Program-made: the position numbers and the translations under genes
Shown: positions 1 through 5,037 of the stretch, one piece after another
Layout of the letters: each line of letters begins with the position of its first letter
How positions within the stretch are numbered: the stretch's first letter is position 1
Notes under the pieces: model-generated
Seen by the model: the letters and a program-made list of their open reading frames with translations, nothing else
What the model was told of the DNA's origin: nothing
Databases searched by the model: none
Origin: a virus
Lineage: Duplodnaviria; Heunggongvirae; Uroviricota; Caudoviricetes
Direction: 5' to 3' (one strand)
DNA length: 5,037 nt
Virus record (IMG/VR): IMGVR_UViG_2740892234_000006

Positions 1-1
1 C

Positions 2-235
2 CGATTTGATGAACGCAATATTCACAAGCAATGCGTGGTGTGCAACCAACATAAAAGCGGAAATCTCGTTCCGTATCGCGTCGAACTGATTAACCGCATC
101 GGGCAGGAAGCAGTAGACGAAATCGAATCGAACCATAACCGCCATCGCTGGACTGTCGAAGAATGCAGGGCGATCAAGGCGAAGTATCAGCAGAAACTTA
201 AAGACCTGCGAAACAGCAGAAGTGAGGCCGCATGA
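2..235 (+). CDS. ninG: NinG (Rap-like) protein, C-terminal part; 5' end lies upstream of the window
   Basis: Frame is open from position 2 to the TGA at 233-235 (the ORF track shows only the M-initiated part 35-235). C-terminal sequence ...[13 protein letters not shown]...NHNRHRWT...[19 protein letters not shown] matches my recollection of lambda-family NinG. Stop overlaps the next start (ATGA), as in nin regions. Confidence 0.7.
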
Positions 236-426
236 CGTTCACAGTAAAAACCATTCCTGACATGCTCGTTGAGGCATATGAAAATCAGACCGAGGTAGCC
301 AGAATACTGAACTGTAGTCGCAACACGGTCAGAAAATACACTGGCGATAAAGAAGGGAAAAGACACGCTATCGTCAACGGTGTTCTTATGGTTCACCGCG
401 GATGGGGTAAAGATACTGATGCGTGA
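232..426 (+). CDS. ninH: NinH, small DNA-binding protein of the nin region
   Basis: 64-aa [61 protein letters not shown]..., close to lambda NinH as recalled ([24 protein letters not shown]...). Position between ninG and Q is the canonical order. Confidence 0.85.
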
Positions 427-853
427 TATCCGGCAGGTTCTTGAGCGCTGGGGGGCATGGGCGGCAAATAACTATGAGGATGTTACATGGTCGCCCATTG
501 CTGCCGGATTTAAGGGACTGATCCCCGAAAAAGTAAAATCACGTCCACAGTGCTGTGACGATGATGCGATGGTGATATGCGGGTGCATAGCCCGCCTTTA
601 CCGGAACAATCGCGATCTGCATGACTTGCTGGTTGATTATTACGTGTTGGGGGAGACGTTCATGGCGTTGGCACGGAAACATGGGTGCTCTGACACCTGT
701 ATAGGTAAACGCCTTCACAAAGCGGAGGGGATTGTTGAAGGCATGCTGATGATGCTGGGAGTGAGGCTTGAGATGGATCGGTATGTTGAGCGTGAATTGC
801 CGGGAGGGAGAACCTCTGTATTTTATCAGCGAAAAAATAGTTTACGATCGTAA
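419..853 (+). CDS. Q: Late-gene antitermination protein Q (short, 144-aa type as in phage 21/933W-like lambdoids)
   Basis: ORF track gives 380-853, but 380 is GTG. ATG at 419 overlaps the ninH stop (ATGCGTGA) and gives a 144-aa product [24 protein letters not shown]... with Cys-rich segment [18 protein letters not shown]. Followed by an AT-rich region, terminators and tRNAs as in Stx-phage Q regions. Start could be 380 (GTG); family subtype is from recall. Confidence 0.85.
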
Positions 854-900
854 AAATCTGCATATCATGATAAGAGTGGTTACATTGCCACGCAGTCGAA

Positions 901-923
901 CCCGCCGATGCGCGGGTTTTTTT
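901..923 (+). terminator. Intrinsic terminator-like hairpin 47 nt after the Q stop
   Basis: CCCGC (901-905) / GCGGG (912-916), 6-nt loop, then T7 (917-923). Confidence 0.55.
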
Positions 924-959
924 GTACCCCGAATCCTGTGAGCTATACGGAAAGTACAC

Positions 960-1100
960 AGAAAGGAAGGTGCGACCGTAATTAATAACAAAATCTTAAA
1001 AATCGCATATAGCACTATTAGTTTTCTAAATATTGTATATTTTAAGTATTGCAGGATAACCCTGTAACGAAGTTTGCGTAACAGCATTTTGCTCTACGAG
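960..1100 (+). promoter_or_regulatory. Candidate location of late promoter PR' and Q-utilisation (qut) site; exact -35/-10 not resolved
   Basis: AT-rich intergenic stretch between Q and a strong terminator, holding several weak sigma70-like hexamers (e.g. TTTTCT 1022-1027, TATATT 1036-1041, TAAGTA 1043-1048). In lambdoid phages PR' lies just downstream of Q and yields a short tR'-terminated RNA. Placement is inference. Confidence 0.3.
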
Positions 1101-1103
1101 TTT

Positions 1104-1132
1104 GCCAGCCTCCCCCAGTGGCTGGCTTTTTT
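1104..1132 (+). terminator. Strong intrinsic terminator, candidate tR'
   Basis: Perfect 7-bp stem GCCAGCC (1104-1110) / GGCTGGC (1120-1126), 9-nt loop, T6 (1127-1132). Confidence 0.7.
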
Positions 1133-1140
1133 ATGTCCGT

Positions 1141-1254
1141 AGCGTCAAAGCAGCAATGGCGCTAGGGCGTCGTGCAATTGGCGTTGAGCTGGAGAGCGGG
1201 CGTTTTGAGCAGACGGTCAGGGAAGTTCAGAATGTAGTCAGTCAGAACGGATGA
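1141..1254 (+). pseudogene. Remnant of the C-terminus of a DNA methyltransferase (no start codon)
   Basis: Frame open from 1060 to the TGA at 1252-1254 with no ATG/GTG start. Translation ...SVKAAMALGRRAIGVELESGRFEQTVREVQNVVSQNG* resembles the conserved ...GRRxIGxEL C-terminal motif of N6-A/N4-C DNA methyltransferases. Too short and start-less to be functional. Confidence 0.5.
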
Positions 1255-1256
1255 TA

Positions 1257-1285
1257 TTGCAGAATTAGTTACGTACCGTTATTAT
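1257..1285 (+). promoter_or_regulatory. Candidate sigma70 promoter for the tRNA cluster
   Basis: TTGCAG (1257-1262), 17-nt spacer, TATTAT (1280-1285), then a GC-rich stretch CCTGCGCCC before the mature tRNA 5' end at 1295, as is typical of stable-RNA promoters. Confidence 0.45.
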
Positions 1286-1294
1286 CCTGCGCCC

Positions 1295-1370
1295 GGCCCT
1301 TTAGCTCAGTGGTGAGAGCGAGCGACTCATAATCGCCAGGTCGCTGGTTCAAATCCAGCAAGGGCCACCA
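1295..1370 (+). tRNA. ileZ: tRNA with anticodon CAU, Ile2 (lysidine) type; alternatively elongator Met
   Basis: 76-nt cloverleaf: acceptor GGCCCTT/AAGGGCC, D arm GCTC-AGTGGTGA-GAGC, anticodon loop CTCATAA, T arm GCTGG-TTCAAAT-CCAGC, discriminator A, encoded CCA. Near-identical to E. coli ileX as recalled; an ileZ-like gene is known downstream of Q in Stx phages. Confidence 0.85.
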
Positions 1371-1377
1371 TCACATA

Positions 1378-1454
1378 CCGCCATTAGCTCATCGGGATAG
1401 AGCGTCAGCCTTCGAAGCTGGTTGCGCGGGGTTCGAGTCCTCGATGGCGGTCCA
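1378..1454 (+). tRNA. tRNA-Arg, anticodon UCG (decodes rare CGA/CGG)
   Basis: 77-nt cloverleaf: acceptor CCGCCAT/ATGGCGG (unusual C1-G72), D arm GCTC-ATCGGGATA-GAGC, anticodon stem TCAGC/GCTGG, loop CTTCGAA, T arm CGGGG-TTCGAGT-CCTCG, discriminator T, CCA. Confidence 0.8.
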
Positions 1455-1467
1455 TTATCTGCACACT

Positions 1468-1513
1468 GCGTTGTTAGCTCAGCCGGACAGAGCAATTGCC
1501 TTCTAAGCAATCG
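1468..1513 (+). tRNA. 5' portion of a tRNA-Arg(UCU) copy, cut by the N run
   Basis: GCGTTGT-TA-GCTC-AGCCGGACA-GAGC-A-ATTGC-CTTCTAA-GCAAT-CG then Ns. Identical to the 5' half of the tRNA at 1569-1645 except for one D-loop substitution. Confidence 0.55.
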
Positions 1514-1523
1514 NNNNNNNNNN
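1514..1523. other. Run of 10 N (gap or masked bases) inside a tRNA copy
   Basis: Directly visible; flanks belong to two different tRNA types. Confidence 0.95.
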
Positions 1524-1555
1524 CTGGCGGGGTTCAAGTCCCCGATGGCGGTCCA
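1524..1555 (+). tRNA. 3' portion of an Arg(UCG)-like tRNA copy (T arm and acceptor 3' strand) following the N run
   Basis: CGGGG-TTCAAGT-CCCCG-ATGGCGG-T-CCA. The acceptor 3' strand matches the Arg(UCG) tRNA at 1378-1454, not the 5' fragment before the gap, so the two fragments are from different tRNA types. Confidence 0.5.
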
Positions 1556-1568
1556 TTATCAGCATCAT

Positions 1569-1645
1569 GCGTTGTTAGCTCAGTCGGACAGAGCAATTGC
1601 CTTCTAAGCAATCGGTCACTGGTTCGAATCCAGTACAACGCGCCA
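1569..1645 (+). tRNA. tRNA-Arg, anticodon UCU (decodes rare AGA/AGG)
   Basis: 77-nt cloverleaf: acceptor GCGTTGT/ACAACGC, D arm GCTC-AGTCGGACA-GAGC, anticodon stem ATTGC/GCAAT, loop CTTCTAA, T arm ACTGG-TTCGAAT-CCAGT, discriminator G, CCA. Confidence 0.9.
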
Positions 1646-1659
1646 TATTTATTTACCAG

Positions 1660-1680
1660 GCTCGCTTTTGCGGGCTTTTT
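1660..1680 (+). terminator. Intrinsic terminator closing the tRNA cluster
   Basis: GGCTCGC-TTTT-GCGGGC hairpin (one T.G wobble) followed by T5. Confidence 0.65.
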
Positions 1681-1924
1681 ATTACAGGAAAGACACTGGA
1701 CAGTGAAATGTTAAATGCCTCACAATTCAGGCAGTTGATGATTGTCTGGTTGACGGAGAGTTGTTAAAAAAGTTTTGCATGGTGAATCCCCCTGAGCGGA
1801 GGGGCGACTGGTGACGGTATAATCTCTGATTATCAAAACGAGAATGACGAGGGTTTAGTGGCACCGGGCTGAACTCACCGGGAGGCACCCGGCACCATGC
1901 AATGGCACATAGCGCCACTCTCCA

Positions 1925-1948
1925 GCCCCTCTCCGGAGGGGCTTTCTT
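1925..1948 (+). terminator. Intrinsic terminator-like hairpin inside leader copy 1
   Basis: Perfect 7-bp stem GCCCCTC/GAGGGGC, loop TCCG, then TTTCTT. Directly followed by A6 and a second hairpin GCCCGCG...CGCGGGC (1961-1982), which reads as a terminator on the - strand. Confidence 0.5.
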
Positions 1949-2051
1949 ATGGACAAAAAAGCCCGCGCTGGGAGACGCGGGCGGCAAGGAATAAACAATG
2001 AAACGTGAAGTAATATTTCAGCTGGCGAATAATACCCTATAGTAATCACTC

Positions 2052-2073
2052 TGCGCAACTGCGCGACCTTTTT
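2052..2073 (+). terminator. Weaker terminator-like hairpin with T5 inside leader copy 1
   Basis: TGCGC-AACT-GCGCG stem then TTTTT. Homologous to the stronger copy-2 hairpin at 3979-4004. Confidence 0.4.
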
Positions 2074-2187
2074 CGAATTGCGGGCTGTAGTCTCCCTTCT
2101 GCCATTGTCCTGTAACTTCCGGACTTCAGCCCGCTCCTTATTTTACTCACAATATTATCCCGGCCGGGAGGATTCATGGCATTTAAA

Positions 2188-2197
2188 NNNNNNNNNN
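2188..2197. other. Run of 10 N cutting a DUF1737-type gene after its 4th codon
   Basis: Directly visible; downstream flank is a terminator resembling the one at 1660-1680. Confidence 0.95.
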
Positions 2198-2199
2198 TT

Positions 2200-2224
2200 G
2201 GCTCGCTTTTGCGGGCCTTTTTTT
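2200..2224 (+). terminator. Intrinsic terminator
   Basis: GGCTCGC-TTTT-GCGGGCC (7-bp stem, one wobble) then T7. Nearly the same sequence as the terminator at 1660-1680. Confidence 0.7.
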
Positions 2225-2276
2225 GTATCTGCGTTACACCATTAACTAATAAATCGAGTGCTTATCAGGAGGCTAT

Positions 2277-2501
2277 GTGAAAAAACTGATGGTGACGATT
2301 GGTCCGTTCGAAACAGAAGTTAGTTTTCGTGTTGTTCAGGGGGAGAGTGTACTTGTTGAAGATGTATTTCATGGAAAATCAACAGGTCCTTATGTAAAAG
2401 AATATCTTATCGACGCCACGGATGAAAATATTGAGGTGGTGTACGATTCCGTCAATCACCCTGATTTGATCATTAAGGCAAAATTGAAGCCACTTTATTG
2501 A
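2277..2501 (+). CDS. Hypothetical small acidic protein (74 aa), no recognised family
   Basis: ORF with GTG start 4 nt after AGGAGG (2267-2272); alternative ATG at 2289. Product MKKLMVTIGPFETEVSFRVVQGESVLVEDVFHGK... has about 12 acidic and 8 basic residues. Lies between two intrinsic terminators. Confidence 0.5.
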   Translation: MKKLMVTIGPFETEVSFRVVQGESVLVEDVFHGKSTGPYVKEYLIDATDENIEVVYDSVNHPDLIIKAKLKPLY

Positions 2502-2553
2502 TCTGACCGGGAGCAATCATAAAATATCTCTGGGTACCCACAAGGAGATAAAT

Positions 2554-2763
2554 ATGTTTGTTTCTGAAGTGTTAATGGAAGATAAGGACAACAAAGGATG
2601 GGTTAAAGGTTGGGCTGTGGTAAGAAGCTCGCCCTGGCATCTTGTTGGGGTTTTTGCGACAGAGGAAGACGCAGAAACGGAAGCAAGAAAGATGGGAGAT
2701 AAGTACGAGGTTCACTATGGCTCGCATCGAACAGGAAGTGATGATTTTGTCTGGGGGGAGTAA
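2554..2763 (+). CDS. Hypothetical small acidic Trp-rich protein (69 aa), no recognised family
   Basis: ATG preceded by strong RBS AAGGAG (2542-2547, 6-nt spacing). Product MFVSEVLMEDKDNKGWVKGWAVVRSSPWHLVGVFATEEDAETEARKMGDKYEVHYGSHRTGSDDFVWGE has about 14 acidic and 8 basic residues and 4 Trp. Followed by a terminator at 2798-2820. Confidence 0.6.
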   Translation: MFVSEVLMEDKDNKGWVKGWAVVRSSPWHLVGVFATEEDAETEARKMGDKYEVHYGSHRTGSDDFVWGE

Positions 2764-2797
2764 CAGTCGTTTAACCCCAGAATAATCCCGTAACTGA

Positions 2798-2820
2798 GGT
2801 CGCTATTGGCGGCCTTTTTT
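2798..2820 (+). terminator. Intrinsic terminator
   Basis: GGTCGC-TATTG-GCGGCC (6-bp stem, one wobble) then T6. Followed by GTATCCGCG, similar to the GTATCTGCG linker after the terminator at 2200-2224. Confidence 0.65.
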
Positions 2821-2952
2821 GTATCCGCGCCACGCCCGGCGCATATCAACCACAGAGCCTTTCGGGGGTGAGCTTACGGAGTGGTCAGTGTGACTTTCTC
2901 TGTGGGCAGATCGCTCCCGGGCGTTGGCTCACCCACCCAAAGGAACGTCACG

Positions 2953-3111
2953 ATGTTTGGTATTTTTGGTAAAAAAAGCCCGCAGAGCGGCAACGGAAAT
3001 TAAAAAGTTTGAAAAACGCGATCTGGCACAGGTGGTGATTAACGCCGCCTACCTGGTGGCCTATGCAGATGGTGAATGTGAGGCTTCCTAGAAAGCGAAG
3101 ATCGAACAGGT
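2953..3111 (+). pseudogene. Degenerate partial copy of the TerB-like gene (start codon present, then frameshift and in-frame TAG)
   Basis: ATG 2953 with RBS AAAGGAA gives MFGIFGKKSPQSGNGN* (stop 3001-3003). The following ~120 nt are ~90% identical to 3122-3243 but in a different frame, consistent with an extra A in the A7 run at 2971-2977, and carry TCC TAG (3086-3091) where the downstream copy has TCA GAG. Could also reflect low-quality contig-end sequence. Confidence 0.45.
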
Positions 3112-3121
3112 NNNNNNNNNN
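3112..3121. other. Run of 10 N between two partial copies of the TerB-like gene
   Basis: Directly visible. Confidence 0.95.
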
Positions 3122-3136
3122 GCCCGCCGAGCGGCA

Positions 3137-3535
3137 GTGGAAATTAAAAAGTTTGAGAAACGTGATCTGGCACAGGCGGTTATTAATGCTGCCTATCTGG
3201 TGGCCTATGCAGATGGTGAATGTGAGGCTTCAGAGAAAGCGAAGATCGAGCAGATCTTGCGTAACCAGCCTGCGTTGTCCGCGTTTACGTCAGAAATTAA
3301 TGCGATTAGCGCAACCATTATCGGTCAGCTGGATACGAACTTTAAAATTGGTCGTCGAGCGGCATTGCGTGAAATTGAAGATGTGAAACACGATACGCGT
3401 GAAGCGGAAGATGTGCTGGATGTGGCGGTGGCCATTGCGGAGGCAGACGGCGAAATTGAGCCGGAAGAGCGCAAGGTGCTGGAAGAGATTGCCGGTGTTC
3501 TGGGTCTTCGTCTGGAGAATTACCTGTTACGGTAA
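3137..3535 (+). CDS. TerB-like (tellurite-resistance TerB family) acidic protein; 5' end uncertain because the frame is open back to the N run at 3121
   Basis: ORF ...EIKKFEKRDLAQAVINAAYLVAYADGECEASEKAKIEQIL...AVAIAEADGEIEPEERKVLEEIAGVLGL... contains two A-x-ADGE-x-E repeats typical of TerB-family domains, as recalled. The true N-terminus is probably MFGIFGKK..., as in the upstream degenerate copy. Confidence 0.6.
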   Translation: MEIKKFEKRDLAQAVINAAYLVAYADGECEASEKAKIEQILRNQPALSAFTSEINAISATIIGQLDTNFKIGRRAALREIEDVKHDTREAEDVLDVAVAIAEADGEIEPEERKVLEEIAGVLGLRLENYLLR

Positions 3536-3860
3536 AACTGCGCCTGACTGTGGCTGCACTCCTGCTGTTTCTGGTGGTGATGGTGGATTTCACCAGCAGA
3601 ATCATGTCGGTGCTGGCGGATGGGGTGCTGGTCTGCGGCATTATGGTATTGCTGTGGCCGGTGATAAAAAGAAACAGCCTGCATAATGCTTGATTTTTTT
3701 ATTTGCTGTTTATTAAAAATACTACTGCATGGTGAATCCCCCTGTGCGGTGGGGCAATCAGCAAGAAGGAATATGGGGTAATCGCGGATTCAGGTGCTGA
3801 TACTGAATTCACCGGGAGGCACCCGGCACCATGCAAGAAAAAGAATGTGCATGCAAACAT

Positions 3861-3886
3861 GCCCCTCTCCGGAGGGGCATTTTTTA
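3861..3886 (+). terminator. Intrinsic terminator-like hairpin inside leader copy 2
   Basis: GCCCCTC-TCCG-GAGGGGC then ATTTTTT. Followed by A6 and hairpin GCCCGAA-TGGG-TTCGGGC (3899-3916), which reads as a terminator on the - strand. Confidence 0.55.
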
Positions 3887-3978
3887 TGGGTAAAAAATGC
3901 CCGAATGGGTTCGGGCAATAGCATGAGATACTGATATTGTTGTGTTGTTATCGTGTGGATTTTAACCAGGGTTTATCA

Positions 3979-4004
3979 GGCTGCGCAACTGCGTGGCCTT
4001 TTTT
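3979..4004 (+). terminator. Intrinsic terminator inside leader copy 2
   Basis: GGCTGCGC-AACT-GCGTGGCC (8-bp stem with two G.U wobbles) then T6. Confidence 0.6.
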
Positions 4005-4100
4005 CATTTCTTGGGCTGTAGTCCCCGTGTGTCATTCAGGCTTCCGGACTACAGCCCACTCCATATCTGATTTAATACACTATCCCGGCCGGGAGGAATA

Positions 4101-4155
4101 ATGACATTTAAACATTATGATGTTGTCAGGGCGGCGTCGCCGTCAGACCTTGCGG
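4101..4155 (+). CDS. 5' fragment of a DUF1737-type gene (nanS-p paralogue), cut after 18 codons by the N run
   Basis: RBS GGGAGGA then ATG; MTFKHYDVVRAASPSDLA... matches the N-terminus of the downstream gene (MSIKHYDVIRAASPSDLAEK...). Confidence 0.5.
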
Positions 4156-4165
4156 NNNNNNNNNN
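4156..4165. other. Run of 10 N cutting a DUF1737-type gene after 18 codons
   Basis: Directly visible; the last 29 nt before the gap are identical to 4347-4375 in the downstream nanS-p gene. Confidence 0.95.
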
Positions 4166-4208
4166 ATTTCTGTTTTTCTCAAACTATCATCGTTATCCCT
4201 TTATTTTC

Positions 4209-4235
4209 GGCTGCGCATGGCGCGGCCTTTTTTTT
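4209..4235 (+). terminator. Intrinsic terminator
   Basis: GGCTGCGC-ATG-GCGCGGCC (8-bp stem, one wobble) then T8. Confidence 0.65.
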
Positions 4236-4321
4236 ACGACCAGCCACTGGCAGATGGTCATCCTGTGATTTGATTCCGCTTCCGGCTTTTTAACTCTGTT
4301 CCTCTACACGGGAGAAATTCG

Positions 4322-5037
4322 ATGTCGATTAAACATTACGATGTTATCAGGGCGGCGTCGCCGTCAGACCTTGCGGAAAAGCTGACACACAAACTGAAAG
4401 AGGGCTGGCAGCCATACGGCGGACCGGTTGCCATTACGCCGTACACACTGATGCAGGCGGTGGCTATTGAAGGAGAGCCACAGGTCGGCCCTTCATCTGA
4501 GCCGGATTGGTACTACGTCATCGTACTGGCCGGGCAGTCCAATGCCATGGCTTACGGTGAAGGGCTTCCGCTGCCGGATTCATACGATGCTCCGGATCCG
4601 CGCATTAAACAGCTGGCGCGCCGCAGTACAGTGACGCCGGGCGGGGCTGTCTGCAGATATAACGATATTATTCCGGCTGACCACTGTCTGCATGATGTGC
4701 AGGATATGAGTACGCTGAATCATCCGAGGGCTGACCTGAGCAAAGGGCAGTACGGCTGTGTCGGCCAGGGTTTACATATTGCCAAAAAACTGCTCCCGTA
4801 TATCCCGAATAACGCGGGGATCCTGCTGGTACCATGCTGTCGTGGTGGTTCGGCATTTACCCAGGGCGCGGAGGGGACATTCAGCGAGTCCACGGGGGCC
4901 AGTCAGGATTCGGCACGCTGGGGAGTGGGCAAGCCGTTATATCAGGATCTGATTTCCCGCACAAAAGCGGCATTGCAGAAAAATCCCAAAAACGTTCTGC
5001 TGGCCGTCTGCTGGATGCAGGGTGAGTTTGACATGAG
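4322..5037 (+). CDS. nanS-p: Prophage sialate O-acetylesterase, NanS-p-like (N-terminal DUF1737 domain plus SASA esterase domain); 3' end beyond the window
   Basis: ATG 4322 with RBS GGGAGA. Frame 2 stays open to the window end, which is why it is absent from the ORF track. N-terminus MSIKHYDVIRAASPSDLAEKLTHKLKEGWQPYGGPVAITPYTLMQAVAIEGE is DUF1737-like; the GQSN motif (4532-4543, ...VLAGQSNAMAYGEG...) is the catalytic-serine signature of SASA-family esterases. This gene class sits downstream of stx2 in Stx phages (recall). Confidence 0.8.
   Translation, partial: MSIKHYDVIRAASPSDLAEKLTHKLKEGWQPYGGPVAITPYTLMQAVAIEGEPQVGPSSEPDWYYVIVLAGQSNAMAYGEGLPLPDSYDAPDPRIKQLARRSTVTPGGAVCRYNDIIPADHCLHDVQDMSTLNHPRADLSKGQYGCVGQGLHIAKKLLPYIPNNAGILLVPCCRGGSAFTQGAEGTFSESTGASQDSARWGVGKPLYQDLISRTKAALQKNPKNVLLAVCWMQGEFDM

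Follow-up and report, generated by a model that had tools for sequence, protein, structure and literature searches.

The window, by which we mean the entire 5,037-nucleotide stretch analyzed here, comprises five segments (S1 to S5) joined at four runs of N (J1 to J4), and the features of both are collected in Table 1. Pfam searches identified NinG, NinH, and Phage_antitermQ domains in S1, TerB and DUF3927 domains in S4, and DUF1737 and SASA domains in S5. The lambdoid late region found here is defined by a Q antiterminator, a tRNA cluster behind it, and a DUF1737/SASA esterase (PF06530, PF08410, and PF03629), and the annotation of five reference loci (L001 to L005) agrees with this assignment. 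The underlying locus is an ordinary lambdoid Q-tRNA-TerB-esterase region.

Table 1. Segments, joins, and other features of the window
Feature	Start	End	Strand	Description
S1	1	1513	+	ninG 3' end, ninH, Q antiterminator, methylase remnant, tRNA(CAU), tRNA-Arg(UCG), 5' 46 nt of tRNA-Arg(UCU)
Methylase remnant (S1)	1141	1254		Partial gene
J1	1514	1523		10-N join within tRNA-Arg(UCU); right side is 3' end of tRNA-Arg(UCG)
S2	1524	2187	+	Three parts: type-B start, shared node, type-C remainder
S2, first part	1524	1584		Type-B allele of tRNA-Arg(UCG) 3' end and spacer
S2, shared node	1585	1656		Shared 72-nt node: 3' two-thirds of tRNA-Arg(UCU) plus 11 nt
S2, remainder	1657	2187		Type-C intergenic DNA, STnc100-like RNA, first 12 nt of DUF1737/SASA esterase gene
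STnc100 (S2)	1749	1954		Rfam
J2	2188	2197		10-N join 12 nt into DUF1737/SASA esterase ORF; right side is terminator-like sequence normally behind tRNAs
S3	2198	3111	+	Type-B prophage; terminator-like sequence, two small ORFs, 5' 159 nt of TerB pseudogene allele
Small ORF (S3)	2277	2501		74 aa
Small ORF (S3)	2554	2763		69 aa
J3	3112	3121		10-N join in 5' part of TerB gene; same 132 nt restart past gap at 90% identity
S4	3122	4155	+	Type-A prophage; intact-allele TerB from codon ~11, DUF3927, STnc100-like RNA, first 55 nt of second DUF1737/SASA esterase
AgvB-like sRNA (within S4)			-	Rfam
J4	4156	4165		10-N join 55 nt into second esterase ORF; third esterase start at 4322
S5	4166	5037	+	Type-B prophage; 156-nt upstream region and 5' 716 nt of third DUF1737/SASA esterase gene (nanS-p-like); gene exits window

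The initial annotation had reported four N runs of exactly 10 bases, each cutting a repeated element. A count of the sequence recovered the same coordinates and found no other N in the 5,037-base window, and the element cut is a tRNA at J1, an esterase start at J2 and J4, and TerB at J3. The repeat ahead of the last gap, given previously as 29 nt, is exact and is 30 nt long (4126-4155 = 4347-4376). The 3' end of S1 is also an exact 30-nt repeat (1484-1513 = 1585-1614). Four runs of 10 N each share one conventional fixed length, as scaffold gaps do, and their equal length is a product of how the record was made, not of chance or biology.

The closest relatives of the segments were found among prophages of types A, B, and C. 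S1 is 100.0% identical to Escherichia phage TL-2011a (locus L004) over 1513 nt and 99.3% identical to L001 (type A); judged by this difference, it is probably part of a type-C prophage like TL-2011a, and it may be two copies collapsed into one consensus. S2 matches O111/O45-type prophages at 99.1% over its full length, with its first 120 nt 100% identical to L001/L003-type loci compared to 94% for type C, and its start (CTGGCGGGG) is one base off every reference allele. Identity is 98.5 to 99.1% between S3 and O145:H28, O26, and other prophages, 98.8 to 98.9% between full-length S4 and L001, CD45, and others, and 100% between S5 and strain 2013C-3264 (99.2% for L003). In L001, S1 and S4 are neighbors, with S4 223 nt behind S1; in L003, a single prophage contains both S3 and S5, and S2 is intact in a further type, represented by L004 and L005. 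Within the single finished genome of 2013C-3264, the best matches to S3, S4, and S5 lie at 1.004, 0.747, and 0.585 Mb, respectively. S5-like sequence has a median copy number of 2 per genome and a maximum of 14, and these modules are therefore multicopy.

The spacing of the junction flanks was measured in 163 uninterrupted reference loci, with a negative distance denoting flank overlap. The implied gap was -91 or -92 nt at J1 (150 of 150 loci), -134 nt at J3 (47 of 47), and -205 to -211 nt at J4 (29 of 29). For J2, the first 34 loci contained both flanks in 0 cases, the left flank only in 11, and the right flank only in 13, and among all 163 loci both flanks were present in only 4, where the right flank lies 1.8 kb upstream of the left one, in reversed order. 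A spacing of +10 nt was seen in 0 cases among the 163 loci, so that the flanks in relatives are not apart by the length of the gap as written, nor are they collinear with exactly a masked length between them. Flank identities are also reciprocal, with one side at 100% and the other at 88 to 94%, and the reverse, indicating that the left and right flanks derive from different copies of the repeat.

Among 5,426 finished E. coli genomes, not one contains a collinear copy of the window or reaches 80% coverage of it, and the best places in these genomes cover 74 to 78% of the window, packed into ~3.4 kb; as lambdoid phages are mosaic, the lack of a collinear known genome is not strict proof that the arrangement is absent. 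Each of J1 to J4 as written, with any 10 bases allowed at the Ns, was searched for in 2.9 million viral contigs (IMG/VR) and had no match, and alignments of the as-written junctions end exactly at each N run. By comparison, the predicted true continuations matched at least 120 (the J1 continuation) and 13 IMG/VR contigs. An exact marker for S2 was found at 8 viral-contig loci, all free of Ns and none matching the whole window, and had 0 matches in genome contigs; a marker for the end of S3 was found at 11 metagenome-contig loci, also all free of Ns.

When the segments are de-interleaved, continuous relatives are recovered. S1 joined to S2 from 1615 to 2187 is identical to TL-2011a at 2086 of 2086 positions with no gaps, and S2 from 1524 to 1656 joined to S3 is collinear with L027 (O145-type prophages) at 99.2%. 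At J1, the real continuation of S1 is thus predicted to be position 1615. At J2, the two sides appear to be alternative branches off one shared node, S2 leading to type C and S3 to type B, and the start of S3 is the base at which it first departs from the S2 path, after shared sequence ending in CATATTTATTTAC. The flanks of J3 (2978-3109 and 3122-3253, 90% identity) are two alleles of the same ~132 to 134 nt of TerB, and a tandem duplication of TerB would therefore be false. At J4, S4 probably continues as S5 from 4377, and the upstream neighbor of S5 would be S4-like sequence to 3834 plus 17 nt. A safer reading of the record is therefore S1 to S2 from 1615, S2 (1524-1656) to S3, S4 (3122-3834) plus 17 nt to S5, and S1 followed at a distance by S4. 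We also considered S2 as a natural recombinant that brought a type-B tRNA allele into type-C downstream DNA, and no reference has this combination. All 7 mismatches of type-C references to S2 fall in its first 88 nt, and from 1615 S2 has 0 mismatches to TL-2011a. It is more likely, though not proven, that S2 was mis-threaded through the shared 72-nt node.

The positions of the segment ends bear on how the joins arose. The last allele-specific base is 1483 in S1 and 4125 in S4, and each of these segments ends exactly 30 nt beyond it. The left ends of S3 and S4 coincide with the first allele-specific base of each, which in S4 is the first base past a shared A-run, and the S2 start lies within 1 to 4 nt of such a base. 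The ends thus lie at repeat boundaries and fit a de Bruijn graph with k = 31 (k-1 = 30), although three of the eight are off the simple k-1 rule: S2 and S3 at their right ends (2187 and 3111, respectively), and S5 at its left end, which lies 17 nt beyond the branch.

Flank distances, reciprocal identities, non-collinearity, restored paths, and k-1 ends all support the earlier proposal that contigs broken at repeats were joined with fixed-length gaps. The window is very probably part of a draft-assembly scaffold that interleaves at least three similar prophages of one E. coli-like genome, and it would exceed any real locus by about 1.6 kb. The source would be an E. coli-like genome, assembled in draft from short reads, with at least three lambdoid prophages whose late-regulatory modules are near-identical (Q antiterminator, tRNA trio, optional small ORFs, TerB/DUF3927, and DUF1737/SASA esterase). 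We infer a de Bruijn graph assembler, with k most likely 31, that would have split the region into five contigs where paralogous copies merge or diverge, after which a scaffolder could have ordered the contigs by their position on the common prophage backbone. Distance estimates would have been negative or very small, and the presumed rule of writing any gap under 10 bp as 10 N would have set every join to the minimum spacer, 10 N. The outcome would be the interleaving of S1 (type C/A), S2 (type B, shared, and type C), S3 (type B), S4 (type A), and S5 (type B). Archives count runs of at least 10 N as gaps, and Velvet-type assemblers, by the convention of the Velvet manual, write 10 N for any gap with an estimated length below 10 bp. 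A literature search for the 10-N convention returned no citable statement, only irrelevant uses of the phrase. The window resembles such Velvet-type minimum gaps in its identical 10-N runs, its joins at repeat boundaries, its negative implied distances, and its k-1 = 30 ends, and differs from them in the three inexact segment ends.

A related explanation is that a tool such as a contig mover or pseudomolecule builder placed the contigs along a reference genome or prophage, with fixed 10-N spacers and without read-pair scaffolding in the assembler. The segments do lie in strictly increasing backbone order (starts in L003 at 4001, 4567, 4697, 5476, and 6206), and all spacers are of equal length. 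However, separately exported contigs normally bear a k-1 shared prefix in assembler output formats, and S3 and S4 lack one, which points to graph nodes joined inside the assembler and makes reference ordering improbable. The practical result is the same for reference ordering as for scaffolding within the assembler, in that the local order is unverified.

Two further readings take the written order as real, and we regard both as barely credible. In the first, the Ns replace exactly 10 real nucleotides each and the nested partial duplications of the tRNA, TerB, and esterase start are true. One public collection is described as masking a few stretches by N runs, and lambdoid prophages recombine and often carry partial genes, such as the methylase remnant of S1. 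This reading would nevertheless require an 88-nt tRNA hybrid, predicted to be non-functional, and it offers no biological rationale for the exact 30-nt end signature; it is also contradicted by the absence of 10-nt spacing in the 163 loci, of the as-written junctions in the IMG/VR contigs, and of collinearity in the finished genomes. In the second, a real composite locus, recombination among resident prophages would have produced the tRNA-Arg hybrid, a TerB fragment beside a full TerB, and three esterase starts, with the Ns standing for 10 bases per joint. The same junctions were not found in independent uninterrupted genomes, neither among the finished E. coli genomes nor in IMG/VR. Concatenation of whole-assembly contigs in arbitrary order with 10-N spacers, which would make neighbors positionally unrelated, is equally far-fetched: it accounts for the fixed spacer length, but an arbitrary or size-sorted order does not predict five consecutive short segments from the same 3- to 4-kb prophage module in backbone order. 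Exact masking, genuine duplication, and arbitrary concatenation were all rejected on this evidence.

Under the preferred reading, interleaved contigs from at least three prophages, the duplicated pieces of tRNA, TerB, and esterase start are artefacts rather than biology, because the N runs join contigs of different prophages. In finished loci, the tRNAs number three rather than four, and TerB is present once. The fourth tRNA was called across Ns by both ARAGORN and Rfam, and an exact look-up of the 5'-truncated 132-aa TerB ORF returned no record. The suggestion that duplications, pseudogene calls, and order in this stretch are partly artefactual held for the fourth tRNA, the TerB fragment beside the full TerB, and the two truncated DUF1737 starts, all of which are interleaving artefacts. 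It did not hold for the frameshift and stop in the S3 TerB fragment (A7 frameshift; TAG at 3089-3091), which are a genuine natural allele; the identical allele occurs in L014, L022, and L024, and assembly error was ruled out by this identical sequence in independent uninterrupted contigs. The artefact matters as a quality flag only, in that annotators would wrongly assign to a single prophage a fourth tRNA gene, a tandem TerB, a second copy of the STnc100 sRNA, and two esterase pseudogenes cut short. Between 1424 and 4376, neither the order and copy number of genes nor the pseudogene calls should be relied on.

The frame of the locus is that of the Stx-type lambdoid late/moron region (ninG-ninH-Q, ileZ-argN-argO tRNAs, stx or other cargo, and nanS-p esterase), with which the window shares NinG, NinH, Phage_antitermQ, three tRNA species, and a DUF1737 plus SASA esterase. 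Phages 933W, VT2-Sakai, and Min27 carry stx2AB in the same frame, whereas the window has no stx genes, its cargo instead being TerB/DUF3927, two small ORFs, or nothing, depending on the prophage copy. The stx-negative phage TL-2011a (JQ011316.1), from the O103:H25 strain of the 2006 outbreak in Norway, is alike in S1 and in S2 from 1615 to 2187, and S3, S4, and S5 are foreign to it. The published genome of that strain is a 454 contig assembly (PMC3293862) and so does not tie the strain to this scaffold. A literature search under the name TL-2011a found no paper. In phage JLK-2012, TerB/DUF3927 are named TciA/TciB.

The only N in the 5,037 bases of the window are four runs of exactly 10, as reported in the initial annotation; we refer to the joins at these runs, 5' to 3', as J1 to J4 and to the segments between them as S1 to S5. 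The runs were correctly described as lying where a tRNA, a DUF1737 gene start and a TerB-like gene are truncated: J1 interrupts a gene for tRNA-Arg(UCU), and a tRNA-Arg(UCG) 3' end comes next; J2 cuts a DUF1737/SASA esterase ORF after 12 nt; J3 breaks a TerB gene in its 5' part, after which TerB starts anew (repeat family D1); and J4 cuts a second esterase ORF after 55 nt (repeat family D4). The end of S1 is an exact 30-nt repeat (1484-1513 = 1585-1614). The repeat before the last gap is also exact, as claimed, and spans 30 nt rather than 29 (4126-4155 = 4347-4376).

We placed the 120-nt flanks of every N run on 163 reference loci (1.43 Mb in total) and recorded the implied distance, the flank spacing that collinearity would demand. 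For J1, both flanks were found in 150 loci, with an implied distance of -91 or -92 in all; the values were -134 in all 47 such loci for J3 and -205 to -211 in all 29 for J4. The J2 flanks occurred together in 4 loci, with the right flank ~1.8 kb upstream of the left (-1784 to -1845), and singly in others (left only in 68 and right only in 23 of 163). An implied distance of +10 was never found for any junction in the 163 loci or in the smaller locus sets tested. Flank identities were reciprocal, with one side at 100% and the other at 88-94% in both directions, so each junction brings together different copies of a repeat. A direct pattern test (two 20-nt ends separated by any 10 bases) agreed with the flank distances: in 2.9 million viral contigs, J1 to J4 as written had 0 matches each, against at least 120 for S1 with its predicted true continuation and 13 for the type-B path predicted to continue into S3 (types A, B and C are similar lambdoid prophage types told apart by alleles and cargo).

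By megablast, the window had matches in 3,613 of 5,426 finished E. coli genomes. No place in these 5,426 genomes covered 80% of it, and the best places held 74-78% within ~3.4 kb, compared with 5.0 kb in the window. Modules of this region are highly multicopy: 1,615 genomes have S5-like sequence, at 7,616 places in all (median 2, maximum 14 per genome). Sequence comparison indicates that the segments come from different prophage types. Type A (L001, CP106929) has S1 (99.3%) and S4 (98.8%) with 223 nt between; one type B prophage (L003, O145:H28 RM13516) has the first 157 nt of S2, S3 (98.5%) and S5 (99.2%); and in type C, including O111:H- 11128 and phage TL-2011a, S2 is intact at 99.1% and the tRNAs pass directly into the esterase gene. 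In finished genome 2013C-3264, the best matches to S3, S4 and S5 lie in three separate prophages, at 1.004, 0.747 and 0.585 Mb. All 10 of 10 long records with the exact 69-aa S3 ORF share one order (antiterminator, 74 aa, 69 aa, TerB, DUF3927, esterase) and have a single, intact, 143-aa TerB. Annotated finished loci contain at most three tRNAs each, versus four in the window.

De-INTERLEAVING restores real sequence in alignments of the rejoined paths. Once the Ns and the 5' 91 nt of S2 are taken out, S1 + S2 (1-1513 + 1615-2187) was identical and gapless over 2086/2086 positions to phage TL-2011a (JQ011316.1). S2 (1524-1656) + S3 was collinear at 99.2% with O145:H28 strain 16003, the only gap being an A7/A6 run in TerB; L003 was collinear with S4 (3122-3834) + 17 nt + S5, and L001 with S4 + S5 (4377-4450). 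In the junction regions as written, alignments end exactly at each N run. The restored paths thus show 1585-1656 to be a shared node of 72 nt. It is entered from the end of S1 or from S2 1524-1584 and left through S2 1657-2187 or through S3, and S2 appears to thread it in the wrong pairing. Given the complete match to TL-2011a, the source genome has a very close relative of that phage's Q-tRNA-esterase region. TL-2011a is stx-negative and comes from the O103:H25 strain of the 2006 HUS outbreak in Norway; the published genome of that strain is a 454 contig assembly, which does not tie the strain to the window (PMC3293862).

The 3' ends of S1 and S4 both lie exactly 30 nt past their last allele-specific base (1483 C/T and 4125 G/A, respectively). 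S3 starts at the first base departing from the S2 path after the shared ...CATATTTATTTAC, S4 at the first base 3' of the shared TerB A-run, and S2 1-4 nt from its branch point; the S2 end, S3 end and S5 start (17 nt past the branch) deviate from the simple rule. From this asymmetry of ends we infer k = 31 de Bruijn graph nodes written consecutively within a scaffold. Node sequences of such a graph look asymmetric when Velvet-type assemblers write them serially in a scaffold, and these assemblers write estimated gaps of <10 bp as 10 N; a literature search for this 10-N rule found no citable statement. The proposal that contigs broken at repeats were joined by fixed-length gaps, supported by the distances in 163 loci, the 0 matches as written and the restored paths, is very probably the right interpretation. 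The feature is an assembly artefact above ordinary prophage biology, and its use is as a warning: gene order, copy number and pseudogene calls in 1424-4376 are unsafe at face value.

The fourth "tRNA" is an interleaving artefact, with 46 nt from the 5' part of one tRNA-Arg(UCU) gene joined to 32 nt from the 3' end of a tRNA-Arg(UCG) gene, and automatic annotation would add it as a spurious gene. The same applies to the TerB fragment beside the complete TerB, both truncated esterase starts and the apparent STnc100 duplication. The individual alleles are real. The initial suspicion that duplications, pseudogenes and order were partly artefactual therefore holds for the tRNA, the TerB duplication and the esterase starts and fails for the S3 TerB, a real pseudogene allele. 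Its A7 run is a +1 frameshift relative to A6 in intact alleles. Assembly error as the source of the frameshift and TAG is ruled out by the same sequence in independent, uninterrupted metagenome contigs (100% in L014 and L024, 99% in L022), and this TerB is a circulating pseudogene allele. With at least two TerB alleles, two tRNA-cluster alleles and three esterase 5' ends, the source genome has at least three prophages.

Coordinates of segments, N runs and features in the window
Feature	Position	Strand	Details
S1	1-1513		5' of J1
Methyltransferase remnant	1141-1254		Between Q and tRNAs; site-specific DNA methyltransferase C-terminal fragment, ~37 codons
tRNA with CAU anticodon	1295-1370		ARAGORN label Met
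Hybrid tRNA	1468-1555		88 nt across N run; ARAGORN tRNA-Arg(UCU); Rfam tRNA 40.9 bits
J1	1514-1523		10 N
S2	1524-2187		Between J1 and J2
STnc100 (RF02076)	1749-1954	+	Rfam; two matches score 158 and 139 bits (gathering score 47)
J2	2188-2197		10 N
S3	2198-3111		Between J2 and J3
Small ORF, 74 aa	2277-2501		No Pfam family above threshold
Small ORF, 69 aa	2554-2763		No Pfam family above threshold
TerB 5' fragment, S3	2953-3111		A7 run; TAG at 3089-3091
J3	3112-3121		10 N
S4	3122-4155		Between J3 and J4
STnc100 (RF02076)	3701-3891	+	Rfam; second of the 158/139-bit pair
AgvB (RF02702)	3892-3953	-	Rfam full-length; 96.5 bits (gathering score 56)
J4	4156-4165		10 N
S5	4166-5037		3' of J4

The window is late-regulatory DNA of E. 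coli prophages that are lambdoid and Stx-phage-like, with Pfam families NinG, NinH, Phage_antitermQ, TerB, DUF3927 and DUF1737+SASA, ARAGORN calls of tRNA(CAU), tRNA-Arg(UCG) and tRNA-Arg(UCU), and Rfam matches to an AgvB-like sRNA and, at two places, to STnc100-like RNA. Stx2a phages such as 933W, VT2-Sakai and Min27 have the same frame with stx2AB as cargo; in contrast, stx is absent from the window. Each STnc100 match lies ~210-220 nt 5' of a DUF1737/SASA esterase start codon, and the two are copies from different prophages, type C for S2 and type A for S4, rather than a tandem pair. The S4 match to AgvB, a prophage-encoded anti-GcvB sRNA, has STnc100 on one side and the esterase start on the other; at the paralogous S2 position (~1955-2040), the sequence differs and Rfam gave no match.

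The tRNA that ARAGORN calls Met is labelled tRNA-Ile by RefSeq in four loci (L001, L002, L003 and L005); it is presumably ileZ-type, with CAU read as Ile after lysidine modification. The methyltransferase remnant is a RefSeq pseudogene in the same four loci, and L034 has a complete 352-aa N6_N4_Mtase at the equivalent place. We also found that type-B prophages conserve the small ORFs as a pair, with the tRNAs on one side and TerB on the other, that S3 occurs at full length in only 91/5,426 finished genomes, and that the exact 69-aa protein is present in 7,653 blocks indexed in a public assembly collection.
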